The position numbers and the translations under genes were made by a program. A stretch of DNA of 64,000 nucleotides, taken from positions 3,660,001 through 3,724,000 of the forward strand of contig CM075992.1 of assembly GCA_038087875.1 (NCBI GenBank), given 5' to 3'. Below are positions 6,101-63,664 of the stretch, one piece after another (position 1 is the stretch's first letter; each line of letters begins with the position of its first letter). The notes under the pieces were generated by a model. The model had not been told where the DNA came from, did not search any database, and worked only from the letters and a program-made list of their open reading frames with translations. The DNA comes from Malacoraja senta (lineage: Eukaryota).

Positions 6101-6622
<522 letters not shown>

Positions 6623-9745: not shown

Positions 9746-10338
9746 GCAGAGGTTTGATTTCGGAGTGGAGAGGAGACCGGCTGATGTGGATCTGAGGGAC
9801 TAAGAAGTGTCCTCACCCGAAACGTCACCCTTTCTTTTTCTCCAGAGATGTTGCCTGACCCGCTGAGTTACTCCAGCATTTTGTATCTATCATTAGATAT
9901 TCTTTAATTTTAGACACAAGGAACTGCAGATGCTGGTTTACACACAAAAAAAGACACAAAGTGCTGGAGTAACTCAGCATCGGCAGTTCCTTGTGTCTAC
10001 ATTAAAGTGTATGTGAAGATGGACACAGAGTGCTGGAGTAACTCAGCGGGTCAGGCAGCATCTGTGGAGCGAAGGAAATGGGCAACCTTTCGGGCCGAAA
10101 CCCTGAAGGAAATAGGCAACGTTTCGGGCCGAAACCCGGAAGGGTTTCGGGCCGAAACGTTGCCTATTTCCTTCGCTCCATAGATGCTGCCGGAACATGG
10201 ATAGGTGACGTTTCACAGAGTGCTGGAGCAACTCAGCGGGTCAGGCAGCATCTGTGGAGAACATGGATAGGTGACGTTTCACAGAGTGCTGGAGTAACTC
10301 AGCGGGTCAGGCAGCATCTCTGGGGAACATGGATAGGT

Positions 10339-10366
10339 GACGTTTCGGGTCGAGACCCTTCTTCAG
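10339..10366 (-). ncRNA. Hammerhead-like motif, dispersed copy
   Basis: Minus strand CTGAAGA-A-GGGTCTCGACCC-GAAACGTC (GUC cleavage triplet). Confidence 0.6.
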
Positions 10367-10800: not shown

Positions 10801-12009
10801 AAAGGCCAGAGATAAGAACAGAAGGTGTGAGACAGGATTGAAGAGTTGTGAATTGCTAAACCTAGGGGGAGGAAAGTCCCAAGAGGGGAGGGGAGAAATA
10901 GGTGGGACACTAGGTGGGGCACGGGGAGGGGAGGAGGGAGAAATAGGAGGGAGGGGGGGTTGGGGGACAAAGGGAGGGTGTGAGGGGAGGGGGTTTGTAG
11001 GAGGTTACGCAAAGTTGGAGAATTCAATGTTCGTATCGTTGGATTGAATGCTACCCTCGCCTAATATGAGGTGTTCCGCTGTCGTTATCATGGTTAATGT
11101 GTTAACAAGACTAATTAAACCTTGTTTACCGTCGCGATTTGTCATCAGAGAGGGAAGACTCGTCACTTCATGGGAAGTTGCTTGGTCATGCTCATAGAAG
11201 AAATGAATGTTTTAACTGGAGGCACAAGAGACTTCAGAATCCAGAGCAAAAGAGGGCGGTGGAGGCAGGTTCTCTGGATGCTTTCAAGAGAGAGCTAGAT
11301 AGGGCTCTTAAAAATAGCGGAGTCAGGGGGATATGGGGAGAAGGCAGGAACGGGGTACTGATTGGGGATGATCAGCCATGATCATATTGAATGGCGGTGC
11401 TGGCTCGAAGGGCCAAATGGCCTACTCCTGCACCTATTGTCTATTGTCTATTGTCTATTGTCTAAAAGACTAATGCTGGAGGAACTCAGCGGGTGAGGCA
11501 GCATCTATGGAGCGAAGGGAATAGGCGACGTTTCGGGTCGAGACCCTTCTTCCGACTGAACAAACGGAGGAACTCAGCGGGTCAGTCAGCTTTCGTGGAG
11601 GGAATGGACAGAGGATGTTTTGGGCTGGGACCCTTCCTTTCAACTGATAGTTTGGACTGGGACTGTGGGCGTTGCTGGAGCAACAGAGGAAGAAGATAGA
11701 AAGAAGGAACTGCAGATGCTGGTTTACAAAAAAAAGGGCAGTAAGTGTCGGAGTAACTCAGCTGGTCAGGTAACATCTCTGGAGAACATGGACAGGTGAT
11801 GTTTCAGGTCCGGACCCTTCTTCTGACTGAGAAGAAGAGTCCAGATCAAACACATCACTTATCCATGTTCTCCAGAGATGTTGCCTGACCTGATGAGTTA
11901 CTCCAGGAGAAGATACTTTCTAATCCACTGTTGTCAGGTGTCCTTAGGTGCAGAAGGAGTGTGAGAACACTGTTTGGTTGAGAATTGTTCATTTACAGAA
12001 TTGTTCAGA

Positions 12010-13025: not shown

Positions 13026-14488
13026 CAATATACCCAGGAAACTATCTATTCAATGAATGTTTCAAACAGCAGGCAGAGAATGGCAGGTGCCTAGAACATG
13101 CTGCCAGGGGTGGTAGGGGAGGCAGATACAAACCTATTTTTTCGATCAACCGAATCTATTTCAACAGTAGATTCATAGAGCCAAAGAGATATATGGCATA
13201 GACACAGAGCTATTGCCTAATCCGGGCAGCATCTCTGGAGAAATGGAATAGGTGACGTTTCAGGTCGAGACCCTTGGTCAGATCCTTGACTTCAAACTAA
13301 ACTAAACTAAAAATAAACACAAAAAGCTGGAGTAATTCAGCGGGTCAGGCATCATCTCTGGAGAAAAGGATTAGTTGACGTTTTGGGTCGAGGCCCTTCT
13401 GCAGACCCTTGACTTCAAACTAAGCAAAACCATATTTAAGACATCCGTCAAAACATGAATGGGCTGCAAATCCTGTATCAGCCTCGAACAAATCAGGGCT
13501 TTCAATGATGTTTGGATGGATGCGATAAATAGTGTCGAGTATTTGGACCATATCCATTTAAAAACTTATAATAGTTGATATCGGTTTATTATCTGGCCCC
13601 GACTGCATGCAATTTCCCAGAACTTCTAATCAGATCACATGGAGCAGGAAACTAATGGCAGGATAAAACTAATTTAATGTTCAGTTAACCTTTACTAATC
13701 TTGCAAGAAAACAGCTCGACTGCCTCCTGAATTCCTACAAAGTGAATAACCATGTTATGCAGTGATTAGTCATTAAAAATGTGAAAATGTGCTCTCAAAA
13801 TAGCCTGGAAATAAACACCTTCCAAAGATATGCTTGCAACATGTTAATAACAGTCAACGGACTGACGAACATGATTTAGAGGATCGGATATATTTATCCT
13901 GAAATTGGCCATTCCAATGCAAAGCAGTGGCAAACAAAGTCTATCATTTCTTAGGAGATTTAGTTCAGTTTTAGTTTAGTTTAGAGATACAGCATGGAAA
14001 CAGGCCTTTCGGTCCACAGAGTCCGCAACGACCAGCGATACTTGCAGATTAACACTATCCTAACACACTGGGACAATTGCCAATTAACCTACAAACCTGT
14101 ACCTTCTGAACCTTCTGAATTTTGTAGTCAGCAGGGCAGTACTCTGCATATCGCCAACTTGGACAATTTTTATCAAGCCAATTAATCAGGCCAATGAACC
14201 TACAAACCTGCACGTCTTTGGAGTGTGGGAGGAAACCGAAGATCTCGGAGAAAACCCACGCAGGTCACGGGGAGAACGTGCAAACTCCGTACAGACAGCA
14301 CCCGTAGTCGGGATCGAACCCTGGTCTCTGGTGCTGCATTTTGCTGTAAGGCAGCAACTCTACCGCTGACCTACAATGAACCTACAAACTTGTGCATCTT
14401 TCGAGTGTGAGAGGAAATCAAAGATCTCGGAGAAAACCCACGCGGGTCACGTGAGAACATTAATAATAACAAACATTTATAATATTTA

Positions 14489-14723
14489 GGTAGACAAAAA
14501 TGCTGGAGAAACTCAGCGGGTGCAGCAGCATCTATGGAGCGAAGGAAATAGGTAACGTTTCGGGCCGAAACCCTTCTTCAGACTGATGAGCGAAGGAAAT
14601 AGGCAACGTTTCGGGCCGAAACCCTTCTTCAGACTGATGAGCGAAAGAAATAGGCAACGTTTCGGGCCGAAACCCTTCTTCAGACTGATGAGCGAAGGAA
14701 ATAGGCAACCCTTCTTCAGACTG
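14489..14723 (-). repeat. TSD-flanked tandem array of 51-bp hammerhead-motif units (3 full + 1 deleted)
   Basis: Unit starts at 14537, 14588, 14639, 14690; minus strand reads cagtCTGAAGAagggtttcggcccGAAACGTTgcctatttccttcgctcat. 15-bp TSD catttataatattta at 14474-14488 and 14724-14738. Confidence 0.85.
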
Positions 14724-15084
14724 CATTTATAATATTTATATCTGCTTCTAGATGGGGTAAATGCACAGAGTCTTTTACCCCTGAATAGGGGAATCAAGAA
14801 CCAGGGGACATAGGTTTAAGTTGAGTGGGGAAAGATTTAATAGGAATCTGCGAGGCGGCTTTTTCACACAGAGGGTGGTAGGTATTGTATATAGAACGAG
14901 CTGCCAGAGGAGGTGGTTGAGGCAGGTACTATAATATTTGGAAAGATACATGGATAGGAAAGGTTTAGAGGGATATTGGCCAAATGTGGGCTGGCGGGAC
15001 TAATGTAAACTGAGGCATCTAGGTCGGCATGGATGGGCCGAAGGCCTGTTTCTGTTCTGTATAACTCTATGAAATGCTCGGGGA

Positions 15085-24572: not shown

Positions 24573-24791
24573 GTGTTAAAGAAGGAACTGCAGATGCTGG
24601 AAAATCGAAGGTACACAAAAATGCTGGAGAAACTCAGCGGGTGCAGCAGCATCTATGGAGCGAAGGAAATAGGTAACGTCTTCTCCCCACCCCCTATCAG
24701 TCTGAAGAAGGGTTTCGGCCCGAAACATTACCTATTTCCTTCGCTCCATAGATGCTGCTGCACCCGCTGAGTTTCTCCAGCATTTTTGTGT
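24573..24791. mobile_element. Penelope-derived fold-back short element
   Basis: Inverted arms of the same terminal repeat; 14-bp TSD atattaacatcatt (24559-24572, 24792-24805). Confidence 0.8.
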
Positions 24792-28959: not shown

Positions 28960-29427
28960 CACAGATTCACAACTCTCTGGATGAAAATCCACAGATTCAC
29001 AACTCTCTGGGTGAAAATCCACAGATTCACAACTCTCTGGGTGAAAATCCACAGATTCACAACTCTCTGGATGAAAATCCACAGTTTCACAACACTAGGT
29101 GAAAATTCACAGATTCACAACTCTCTGGGTGAAAATCCACAGATTCACAACTCTCCGGATGAAAATTCATAGATTCACAACTCTCTGGATGAAAATCTAC
29201 AGTTTCATAACTCTCTGGATGAAAATCCAGTTTCACAACTCTGGGTGTAAATCCACAGTTTCACAACTCACTGGATGAAAATCCACAGATTCACAACTCT
29301 CTGGATGAAAATCCACAGTTTCATAACTCTCTGGATGAAAATCCATAGATTCACAACTCTGGATGAAAATCCACAGATTCACAACACTAGGTGAAAATTC
29401 ACAGATTCACAACTCTCTGGGTGAAAA
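28960..29427. repeat. ~30-bp minisatellite derived from a CR1 segment
   Basis: About 16 copies of ccacagattcacaactctctggRtgaaaat, continuous with the CR1 remnant at 28736-28985. Confidence 0.9.
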
Positions 29428-44884: not shown

Positions 44885-45084
44885 NNNNNNNNNNNNNNNN
44901 NNNNNNNNNNNNNNNNNNNNNNNNNNNNNNNNNNNNNNNNNNNNNNNNNNNNNNNNNNNNNNNNNNNNNNNNNNNNNNNNNNNNNNNNNNNNNNNNNNNN
45001 NNNNNNNNNNNNNNNNNNNNNNNNNNNNNNNNNNNNNNNNNNNNNNNNNNNNNNNNNNNNNNNNNNNNNNNNNNNNNNNNNNNN
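44885..45084. other. Assembly gap (200 N)
   Basis: Run of exactly 200 N. Confidence 1.
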
Positions 45085-47685: not shown

Positions 47686-47949
47686 TATTCTCCCAATTCT
47701 GCTAGCCCTTGCTGTCCCCTCCCCTTCATCAGCCCTCTGGTTGTCTCCTCCCTCCCCCAGCCCTCAGGCTCCTCCTCCGCCTTTTTCCTTTTTTCCTTTC
47801 TTCTCCCCACCCCCTATCAGTCTGAAGAAGGGTTTCAGCCCGAAACGTTGCCTATTTCCTTCGCTCCATAGATGCTGCTGCACCCGCTGAGTTTCTCCAG
47901 CATTTTTGTGTACCTTCGATTTTCCAGCATCTGCAGTTCCTTCTTTAAC
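47686..47949 (+). mobile_element. 5'-truncated Penelope-like 3' end with hammerhead-like motif (47822-47849)
   Basis: Near-identical to 54763-55027; 14-bp TSD agaaataatatcac (47672-47685, 47950-47963). Confidence 0.85.
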
Positions 47950-50080: not shown

Positions 50081-50489
50081 AATTGTACTCCAGCACTTTT
50101 TGTGTATCTCTGGTATAAACTAGCACCTGCAGTTCCTTGTTTCTGAAGAAGCTCTAAAGAAGGGTTCGGACCCGAAACATCACCCATCAGTTTTCTCCAG
50201 AGATGAACCGCTGAGTTACTCCAGCACTTTTTGTGTATCTCTGGTATAAACTAGCACCTGCAGTTCCTTGTTTCTGAAGAAGCTCTAAAGAAGGGCTCTG
50301 ACACGAAACGTCACCCATCCCTTTTCTCCAGGTATGCTGCGTAACCTGCGGAGTTACTCCACCTCTTTGTGTTCATCTCCACTTAACATGCTGGGGTCAG
50401 TGGCCAAATGTTTGTCTTGGGTGCAGGTTTTAGGAAGTATCTTAAAGAGATAGAACATTTTTAATTTCACACGAGGACGACTTACTCAC

Positions 50490-53646: not shown

Positions 53647-55027
53647 GTACACAAAAATGCTGGAGAAACTCAGCGGGTGCAGCAGCATCTATGGAGCGAA
53701 GGAATAGGTAAAGTTTCGGGCCGAACCCTTCTTCAGACTGATAGGGGGTGGGGAGAAGAAAGGAAAAAAGGAAAAGGAGGAGGAGGAGCCCGAGGGCTGG
53801 GGGAGGGGAGGAGACAACCAGATGGCTGATGAAGGGGAGGGGACTGCCAGGGCTAGCAGAATTGGGAGAATTCAATGTTCAGGCCACCAGGATGTAGACT
53901 GGCCCAAGCGGAATATGAGGTGCATTTCCTCCAATTTACGGTGTTGCTCGCTGTGGCCATGGAGGAGACCCAGGACAGAGAGGTCAGATACGGAATGGGA
54001 GGGGGAGTTGAAGTGCTGAGCCACCGGGAGTTCAGGTTGGTTATTGCGGACCGACCGGAGGTGTTCGGCGAAACGATCGCCAAGCCTCCGCTTGGTCTCA
54101 CCGATGTAGATCAGCTGGCATCTAGAGCAGCGAATGCAATAGATGAGGTTGGAGGAGATGCAGGTGAACCTCTGTCGCACCTGGAACGACTGCTTGGGTC
54201 CTTGAATGGAGTGGAGGGGGGAGATGAAGGGACAAGTGTTGCATCTCTTGCGGTTGCAAGGGAAAGTACCAGGGAGGGGGTGGTATGGGAGGGAAGGGAA
54301 GAATTGACAAGGTGGCCTGTCCCTTGTCAATTCTTCCCTTCCCTCCCATACCACCCCCTCCCCTGGTACTTTCCCTTGCAACCGCAAGAGATGCAACACT
54401 TGTCCCTTCACCTCCCCCTCCACTCCATTCAAGGACCCCAAGCAGTCGTTCCAGGTGCGACAGAGGTTCACCTGCATCTCCTCCAACCTCATCTATTGCA
54501 TTCGCTGCTCTAGATGCCAGCTGATCTACATCGGTGAGACCAAGCGGAGGCTTGGCGATCGTTTCGCCGAACACCTCCGGTCGGTCCGCAATAACCAACC
54601 TGAACTCCCGGTGGCTCAGCACTTCAACTCCCCCTCCCATTCCGTATCTGACCTCTCTGTCCTGGGTCTCCTCCATGGCCACAGCGAGCAACACCGTAAA
54701 TTGGAGGAAATGCACCTCATATTCCACTTGGGCAGTCTACATCCTGGTGGCCTGAACATTGAATTCTCCCAATTCTGCTAGCCCTGGCTGTCCCCTCCCC
54801 TTCATCAGCCATCTGGTTGTCTCCTCCCCTCCCCCAGCCCTCGGGCTCCTCCTCTGCCTTTTCCTTTTTTCCTTTCTTCTCCCCACCCCCTATCAGTCTG
54901 AAGAAGGGTTTCGGCCCGAAACGTTACCTATTTCCTTCGCTCCATAGATGCTGCTGCACCCGCTGAGTTTCTCCAGCATTTTTGTGTACCTTCGATTTTC
55001 CAGCATCTGCAGTTCCTTCTTTAACAC
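53647..55027. mobile_element. Penelope-like (Neptune-type) retroelement 3' fragment arranged as a ~1.35-kb inverted repeat; GIY-YIG endonuclease remnant
   Basis: Arms ~53647-54312 and 54322-54990 around a 9-nt spacer. Each encodes PGTFPCNRKRCNTC ... NLIYCIRCSRCQLIYIGETKRRLGDRFAEH ... GLN. 15-bp TSD aaggaatgttggttg at 53632-53646 and 55028-55042. Confidence 0.9.
54898..54925 (+). ncRNA. Minimal type I hammerhead-ribozyme-like motif in Penelope terminal repeat
   Basis: CTGAAGA-A-GGGTTTCGGCCC-GAAACGTT: conserved core, stem II hairpin, palindromic ACGT helix III; downstream of the GIY-YIG stop. Helix I pairing is weak. Confidence 0.65.
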
Positions 55028-59965: not shown

Positions 59966-60202
59966 AAATACATTTCTCACACCGGTCATCTCGCTCCCTT
60001 TGGCCAGAAGAAAGAAAAACGTTGACAGCACATACCACCAGATTCAGGAACAGCTTCTTTCCTGCTGTTCTAAGACTACTGAATGGCCACACATTGTGGA
60101 CCTTAGACTTTATCTCTGTAACTATAACACTATAATACTGTAACACTGTATTCTAATCTCTGGTTAGTTTCTCCTTGGGTGACCCATTGTACGTATCTAT
60201 AG

Positions 60203-60422
60203 TGTTTAAGAAGGAACTGCAGATGCTGGAAAATCGAAGGTAGACAAAAGTGCTGGAGAAACTCAGCGGGTGCAGCAGCATCTATGGAGCGAAGGAAATA
60301 GGCAACGTTTCGGGCCGAAACGTTGCCTATTTCCTTCAGGGTTTCGGCCCGAAACGTTGCCTATTTCCTTCGCTCCATAGATGCTGCTGCACCCGCTAAG
60401 TTTCTCCAGCACTTTTGTCTAC
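60203..60422. mobile_element. Penelope-derived fold-back short element
   Basis: Inverted arms; 14-bp TSD gtacgtatctatag (60189-60202, 60423-60436). Confidence 0.85.
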
Positions 60423-62280: not shown

Positions 62281-63036
62281 GCCATTGCCAGGGTGCACTA
62301 CACAAGGAGGCAAGGAGAACAATTGTCCTGTTGTCAGTCGCAAACTCCACCACAATTCACTGCTGTTTGCGCACATCTGCAACATCCCTCCCCAGGGAGT
62401 TAAACCTGCCCTGCAGTATTCCTGAAAAGCCACCCTGTGCCTTTAGTACAGCAGCTGCAGACCAGCGTTAGACAACAGCCCTGCAAACTGGCTCACTGAA
62501 GCCAGACAACAAAATGCTGGAGTAACTCAGCGGGACAGGCAGCATCTCTGGAGAGAAGAAATAGGTGATGTTTCGGGGCGAGACAATAGACAATAGGTGC
62601 AGGAGCCAGCACCGCCATTCAATATGATTATGGCTGATCATCCACAATCAGTACCCCGTTCCTGCCTTCTCGCCATATCCCTTGACTCCACTATCAATAA
62701 GAGCTCTATCTAACTCTCTCTTGAAAGCATCCAGAGAATTGGCCTCCCTTCTGAAGCAGAGACTTCCACAGACTGACAACTCTCTGGGTGAAAAAGCTAT
62801 TCCTCATCTCCGTTCTAAATGGCCGACCTCTAATTCTTAAACTGTGGCCCCTGGTTCTGGATTCTTCTTCAGACTGAGACCCTTCTTCAGACTTAGATTT
62901 TGCAGACTTCTTGGAAAGAAAAAATGTTAAAACTACATTATTAACAAGTAACAACTCTATCTCGGCACGCCCGAGATTTCTGCATCTTGGCTTCTGGTTT
63001 CATGTTTGCTCCAAACCTAATCATTCCATCAGAGGT

Positions 63037-63219
63037 ACACATAAATGCTGGAGAAACTCAGCGGGTGCAGCAGCATCTATGGAGCGAAGGAGATAGGCAA
63101 CGTTTCGGCCCGAAACGTTGCCTATCTCCTTCGCTCCATAGATGCAGCTGCACCCGCTGAGTTTCTCCAGCATTTTTTGTGTACCTTCGATTTTCCAGCA
63201 TCTGCAGCTCCTTCTTTAA
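63037..63219. mobile_element. Penelope-derived fold-back short element
   Basis: Near-perfect hairpin centred on aacgtttcggcccgaaacgtt; 15-bp TSD cattccatcagaggt (63022-63036, 63220-63234). Confidence 0.85.
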
Positions 63220-63664
63220 CATTCCATCAGAGGTGCGTGTGTCCATGGCTCTCTAGTCCCCATCCCTCCACTGTGCTCCTTATAATCTTCTATTCTGCCC
63301 TATTATTCCAGCATTAAATTCTATCAGGACATTACTCAGGAGTCAAGAGCGTTTAATTGTCATATATCCCGAAAATGGAACGATTAAATTCTCACTTGCA
63401 GCAGAGGCACAGCAGATTCGTAAACACGTGCTCAATAGATAATATAATAAGCAAAACAAACAAAAAGTCCAATAAATACAAACACTTCCAGATTCAGGGA
63501 CAGTTTCTTCCCAGCTGTGATCAGGCAACTGAATCACTCTACCACAACCAGAGAGCAGTGCCTGAACTACTATCCACCTCATTGGTGACCCACGGACTAT
63601 CTTTGATCAGACTTTACTGGCACGATTCCCTTATCAAGTATCTACACGCTGTAAGTGGCTCGAT

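Follow-up and report, generated by a model that had tools for sequence, protein, structure and literature searches.

Telomerase copies one stretch of template repeatedly into exact tandem cDNA. The concatemers made by the DRT2 reverse transcriptase likewise come from repeated copying of one template stretch (PMC12039810). The reverse transcriptases of Penelope-like elements (PLEs) are the sister group of telomerase reverse transcriptases (PMC8557442). Insertions of EN+ Neptune-type PLEs are described with a pseudo-LTR (pLTR) behind a C-terminal GIY-YIG open reading frame (ORF), heavy 5' truncation, copies that are inverted or partly tandem, two 3' ends with a spacing of about 35 nt and an AT-rich target (PMC8557442, PMC11167929). 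The endonucleases of this type carry a CX2-5CxxC linker and CCHH, and PMC8557442 gives the linker as absent from Penelope and Poseidon. A two-ended "tail" has been explained by two internal sites at which reverse transcription starts once AT-rich DNA has been cleaved (PMC11167929). The minimal type I hammerheads of metazoan PLEs cleave weakly, as dimers or trimers, and a variant with a 2-bp helix I is described for D. virilis (PMC4209133).

Tandem hammerhead units also define the retrozymes. Characterised animal non-LTR retrozymes are 170-400 nt long, with canonical hammerheads, multi-locus families and circular RNA (PMC7229834). A recent preprint uses an operational definition of two or more units in a row that carry a complete type I hammerhead (bioRxiv 10.64898/2026.07.22.740005). 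The pLTR-derived hammerhead tandems in it have consensus lengths of 51-972 bp and mostly no more than 7 units, and one chondrichthyan genome is included. In our literature search, with most subscription papers outside its scope, no description was seen of a 51-bp stretch reiterated exactly inside a single PLE insertion with flanking TSDs.

Such a reiteration was found in a 64,000-nucleotide stretch of Malacoraja senta DNA (the window). Positions 14489-14723 are one insertion of 235 bp between exact 15-bp target-site duplications (TSDs). The direct repeat (14474-14488 and 14724-14738) cannot be extended and is absent elsewhere in the 64-kb window, and a flanking exact repeat of at least 15 bp was seen for 3 of 3000 random 235-bp intervals. 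Family coordinates are counted from C3 of the hammerhead core, which is position 0.

14474-14488, plus strand: left TSD copy, 15 bp, 14 of the 15 bases A or T
14489-14536, minus strand: non-repeated 48-nt 3' part of the pLTR (+45 to +92), the ordinary family tail
14537-14587, minus strand: unit 1 (-6 to +44), continuous with the tail; core 14581-14554, A at +28
14588-14638, minus strand: unit 2 (-6 to +44); core 14632-14605, G at +28
14639-14689, minus strand: unit 3 (-6 to +44); core 14683-14656, G at +28, one private C-to-T change
14690-14723, minus strand: unit 4 (-4 to +44), 34 nt, 5' end of the insertion; no hammerhead core
14724-14738, plus strand: right TSD copy, 15 bp, exact match to the left copy

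On the minus strand, the segments run from -4 to +44 with 15 nt deleted, twice from -6 to +44, and finally from -6 to +92. Tandem Repeats Finder (TRF) reported a period of 51, 3.4 copies and 97% matches over 14537-14709, and the core-to-core distances in the array are 51, 51 and 36. The inner units begin at -6 and the outermost unit at -4. The 15 nt missing from unit 4 lie between two GTT triplets and correspond to an inverted-repeat hairpin; their loss covers the 3' side of helix II and the GAAAC box. An earlier note, made from the letters of this DNA, had proposed one TSD-flanked, reverse-transcribed insertion, and the exact repeats and the segment map bear this out. It had also listed three exact-period 51-bp units and a deleted fourth, each with a full core, and the full core holds for units 1-3 but not for unit 4. 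It had described the whole insertion as tandem units, which is true of 14537-14723 but not of the 48 unrepeated nucleotides at 14489-14536.

Judged by its sequence, the insertion is the truncated 3' end of a Neptune-type PLE. Over 96 nt, unit 1 and the tail differ at 1 position from the family copy that follows a GIY-YIG ORF.

54308-55027, plus strand: reference copy, with the end of the GIY-YIG ORF (54308-54781) followed by the pLTR with hammerhead segment and tail

This copy is half of an inverted, TSD-flanked insertion at 53647-55027. The Pfam GIY-YIG model matched the ORF with E=1.2e-4 and 22.7 bits against a cut-off of 22.6, and the atlas placed the ORF at 0.97 to GIY-YIG clusters. Its best homologues were named cartilaginous-fish proteins with 59-70% identity. 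A reverse transcriptase domain (PF00078) was present in 4 of 25 longer homologues, for example P0019 (902 aa, 50% identity); family copies in the window are truncated before this domain, and the fusion of reverse transcriptase and endonuclease was seen in relatives only. A CX4CxxC linker and CCHH were read by eye in the ORF translation, and the Neptune assignment is based on these motifs rather than on a reverse transcriptase tree. The family has 58 matches at 40 loci in the 64-kb window.

With EN+ Neptune-type insertions (PMC8557442, PMC11167929), the family has in common a pLTR that follows a C-terminal GIY-YIG ORF carrying the CX4CxxC linker and CCHH, as well as the heavy 5' truncation, inversions and partial tandems, 3' end spacing and AT-rich target described for them. 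Among 18 segments of at least 85% identity that reach +60, 11 end at +80 to +99 and 7 at +120 to +131, two clusters that match the two-start "tail" of PMC11167929. The 48-nt tail of our insertion stops at the shorter of these two ends (+92), and we infer that this end (14489) was the start of reverse transcription. Unlike the described insertions, the array is a 51-bp internal slice in exact register without ORF sequence, and only the first copied segment has the tail. An independent self-cleaving unit of about 51 nt, as the earlier note had proposed, is not supported; the unit is an internal slice (-6 to +44) of a Penelope-like pLTR.

Next, the hammerhead letters were compared with the metazoan PLE motifs. 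On the minus strand, units 1-3 each hold CUGAAGA, an extra A, a 4-bp helix II, GAA, a palindromic ACGU and H17 = U. All core letters of the minimal type I hammerhead (boxes, extra base 9/10.1, G10.1-C11.1, palindromic 15.2-16.2, UH) were found in units 1-3 and not in unit 4. The array shares with the hammerheads of PMC4209133 the CUGAnGA and GAAA boxes, the extra base 9/10.1, G10.1-C11.1, the palindromic 15.2-16.2, the missing helix III loop and the dimer-dependent design. In contrast to those hammerheads, helix II has 4 bp instead of 7-8 and helix I has 2 instead of 4-5, the young subfamily of the array has U at H17, and neighbouring motifs are 51 nt apart. In the array, as in 16 of the 26 motif copies, helix I has 2 contiguous bp, fewer than 4-5. 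H17 is U in 6 of these copies and C in 20, and GUU is counted among the cleavable NUH sites (PMC3138052). The predicted cut lies at +27/+28, which in unit 1 is between 14554 and 14553. Rfam gave no match at the gathering threshold across the window, and at E<=10 the 7 weak matches in 14400-14800 did not include a hammerhead.

The palindromic ACGU of neighbouring units can pair, and the bare fold of helix II and helix III was predicted at -9.2 kcal/mol, which agrees with the idea in the earlier note that adjacent copies would supply the partner for helix III. With helix I included, the bare dimer fold came to -3.7 to -4.0 kcal/mol. Within the array, helix II had a predicted probability of 0.001-0.002 and the double-hammerhead fold lay 31-32 kcal/mol above the free ensemble, as estimated without a positive control and with tertiary contacts and protein help ignored. 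The 235-nt strand folds no better than its shuffles (z -0.94, 32/200), and the predicted stem-loop of the hammerhead segment spans about +2 to +40. We infer that the hammerhead letters in the array are passengers and that, without protein, its cleavage is probably weak or absent. The hammerhead of Anolis PAc is reported to show no cleavage without protein and to be dispensable for insertion in vitro (PMC11167929), and 8 of 9 Xenopus dimers failed to cleave (bioRxiv 10.64898/2026.07.22.740005).

Upstream of the core, a pyrimidine tract (17-19 of 21) and an AG at -3/-2 were present in 7 of 7 copies checked (54898, 47822, 24702, 32454, 21457, 10366, 30831). These resemble a splice acceptor that coincides with the 5' strand of helix I, an arrangement also described for D. 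virilis Penelope. Of 23 GT sites considered as donors for a longer helix I, none allowed more than 2 bases to pair. A circle produced by back-splicing was rejected; the units retain what lies upstream of the acceptor-like AG, and a GT is absent at +45.

The locus is probably a dead, 5'-truncated compound PLE insertion whose array was made by template jumps of the reverse transcriptase during insertion. The GIY-YIG endonuclease would cut an AT-rich site with a 15-nt stagger, and reverse transcription would start at the internal site (+92) on the pLTR RNA. Copying would pass the structured hammerhead segment, stall at -6, a frequent break-off point in the family, and be re-primed at +44, just 3' of the stem-loop, with the same pLTR RNA or a different one as template. 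The first jump, at the least, would take place during insertion; the further exact copies could be repeated jumps or slippage of the new tandem. The last pass would skip the 15-nt hairpin, and the cDNA would join the target at -4. Repeated template jumps had been offered in the earlier note as one of two origins and are the one we favor. Template jumping is cited for R2 (PMC2718515), and the model extends it to the enzyme of this element by analogy.

The ends of the units bear on the timing. The inner units reach up to -6, and an insertion of one unit that began at -4, as the present one does, would not contain a whole inner unit. Two upstream bases are thus present inside the array and missing at its outer end, which makes it probable that at least one joint was formed during insertion. 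The AT at -6/-5 of the units could alternatively come from +46/+47 plus a one-base loss. An extra one-base loss of this kind is required if a single unit with its tail was inserted and everything else followed by replication slippage or unequal exchange, since -6 and -5 are missing at the 5' end of the insertion. The perfect period, the many short tandem repeats in the window and the local amplification proposed for pLTR ends (bioRxiv 10.64898/2026.07.22.740005) would suit such an expansion. However, two single-base differences are private to their units and unshared by the neighbours, and the TSD copies are still identical, suggesting that little time has elapsed since insertion. Expansion after insertion is decidedly unlikely as the only source of the array.

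The three joints fall at the same bases, which exceeds the expectation from independent random jumps. To account for them takes a strong hot spot, slippage at a later time or a template that was multimeric from the outset. Compared with the reference copy, exact microhomology at the joint (+44/-6) is 0-1 nt. Unit 1 has A at +28 and units 2-4 have G. Both alleles (window position 14553) are common in the contigs of the sequencing runs; A also occurs in the insertions at 24573 and 53647, and G in those at 47686, 60203 and 63037. The A/G split is consistent with a change of template to a second RNA, which could be a multimer or circle, or with a single mutation at a later time.

One multimeric template would be the RNA of a 51-bp tandem that arose once elsewhere. 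Its linear read-through RNA, with units and tail, would be mobilised in trans by a Penelope-like protein, as in a small non-autonomous retrozyme-like family. This would account for the three identical joints and the different base of unit 1 in one step, the array retains the tail end where copying begins, and vertebrate tandem hammerhead families from pLTRs go down to 51 bp (bioRxiv 10.64898/2026.07.22.740005). The +44/-6 joint was found at only 1 of the 40 family loci in the window, which argues against such a family, and we hold this origin to be unlikely.

Another multimeric template would be a circle. Array RNA would cleave itself as dimers into 51-nt monomers, these would be circularised, and a reverse transcriptase that started on pLTR RNA would jump on and roll almost three rounds. 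The exact period, the full core letters in each complete unit and the possible ACGU pairing between neighbours are consistent with this, as is the +28 allele that units 2-4 share and unit 1 lacks, and circular templates have been proposed for PLEs (PMC4209133). However, the unit joint (+44/-6) is off the predicted cleavage site, so a ribozyme-made circle cannot have created the joint, and a dimer at the DNA level must come first. A circle would also lack the tail where copying begins, and the first 48 nt of the insertion lie outside the unit. Helix I has only 2 bp, H17 is U where most motif copies have C, and folding predicts that the active structure is very rare. Reiterations of 34 bp without a core arise in the same family, and RNA-seq of Anolis PAc is reported to contain no reads with a start or a stop at the cut site (PMC11167929). 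The self-cleaving mini-circle of the earlier note is very improbable on these grounds. Template jumps on pLTR RNA remain our preferred origin.

The 34-bp reiterations come from a +40/+7 joint without the CUGA box, found at 2 loci, near 10112 and 60330.

60203-60422, plus strand: sibling with a 14-bp TSD, an inverted copy and a 34-bp direct reiteration (+40/+7)
10031-10190, minus strand: second +40/+7 locus, with a different inversion point; TSD not found

With this joint at two loci, recurrence of a joint cannot separate a circle from a jump hot spot. The +40/+7 joint, at 10105-10137 and 60322-60337, could be a recurrent break point or mark a small lineage. TSDs of 14-15 bp were found at 6 of the 19 family loci examined (14489-14723, 24573-24791, 47686-47949, 53647-55027, 60203-60422 and 63037-63219), repeats of 6-8 bp at 2, and none at 11. 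Five of the six TSD-flanked insertions are compound: four are inverted pairs, and the fifth is the direct array at 14489-14723. Segments of at least 85% identity number 22, 3 in the array and 19 elsewhere. Thirteen of the latter start between -6 and +10, four further upstream and two later, although for copies of greater age the apparent start could simply reflect where they diverge from the reference. The window thus maps break points of the enzyme (-6 to +10, and +40/+44).

Strand switches at 753-885, 60202-60340, 63033-63221 and 10139-10190 cluster at an inverted repeat, +10 to +24, which overlaps helix II and GAAAC and is the hairpin lost by unit 4. At 10139-10190, its central base is flipped. 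Other tandems of the same pLTR family lie at 10193-10346, 11478-11647 and 50086-50331, with periods of 66, 88 and 131.

Support for the array in sequencing data was sought in the contigs of 4 of 24 runs (X19, X20, X21 and X1), which were compared with 14150-15050 at 90% likeness; repeat copies swamp the result. None of the 24 runs is recorded as RNA. An 84-bp contig of X19 covers 14695-14778, that is, the deleted unit, the TSD and the flank, with 0 differences and a depth of 28.8. This run may be the assembly's own source, and the independence of its support for the 5' joint is limited accordingly. An empty-site or single-unit allele was absent among the 15 of 1636 joints and 32 of 615,705 pieces listed, a weak test given the swamping by repeats, and none of the pieces listed confirms the number of units. 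A misassembly could thus have inflated this number, as none of the listed contigs spans the array. The units differ by private changes and a deletion, the TSDs are exact and the 5' joint is present on an exact contig, all of which make an assembly artefact hardly credible. One X19 contig with a related variant that skips the hairpin has a depth of 1033, whereas the contig of the locus has 28.8; this suggests that hairpin skips are multi-copy. Weak go-back joints in the run contigs (14552 to 14494 in X19, 14675 to 14542 in X21) hint at other periods.

The array shares tandem units, type I hammerhead letters, pLTR origin and a long TSD with animal non-LTR retrozymes (PMC7229834, bioRxiv 10.64898/2026.07.22.740005). 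It differs from the characterised ones (PMC7229834) in its 51-nt unit and minimal motif, and it is known as sequence only. The unit was called much smaller than described retrozyme monomers in the earlier note; this is true against the 170-400 nt of PMC7229834 but not against the range in bioRxiv 10.64898/2026.07.22.740005, as 51 bp is the smallest consensus length given there. Set beside the operational definition of that preprint, the array has the core letters in 3 consecutive units and a helix I of 2 bp, as judged by letters and not by the authors' descriptor. By analogy, the array would work like the first step in the formation of a non-LTR retrozyme, and its own status as a retrozyme is that of a candidate. 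The locus may be seen as a clean snapshot of how a hammerhead-bearing tandem can arise from a Penelope-like pLTR in the course of a single insertion, and it illustrates the step of retrozyme birth that bioRxiv 10.64898/2026.07.22.740005 leaves open.

In DRT2 and telomerase the reiteration is programmed, whereas the array is one locus and its siblings have other break points. There is a small chance that a PLE reverse transcriptase can reiterate a fixed, structure-bounded 51-nt template in exact register, on its own pLTR RNA or on a self-cleaved 51-nt circle that it has jumped to. Such events would then give rise to the smallest hammerhead retrozyme families of cartilaginous fishes, and many independent sites in these genomes would carry the same joint. 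If exact reiteration were programmed and recurrent, PLE copying would be linked to telomerase-like repeat addition. As it stands, the array is instructive yet ordinary, a side product of a high-copy Penelope-like element with 40 loci in 64 kb, and the significance of one dead insertion is modest.

The target adjoins an older dispersed repeat with an internal duplication on one side (14160-14473, 27 other matches) and a diverged LINE-like piece on the other (14739-15070, 3 other matches). An intact-looking VCP/p97 exon, for residues about 270-315, lies at about 6150-6300 on the minus strand. A search of the window with 20 VCP peptide motifs gave only this lone exon near 6200, which is either a lone duplicate or part of a gene with very long introns. 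If it belongs to a gene, the array would sit on the gene's sense strand. The window also contains an assembly gap of 200 N at 44885-45084 and a 30-bp minisatellite of about 16 copies at 28960-29427.
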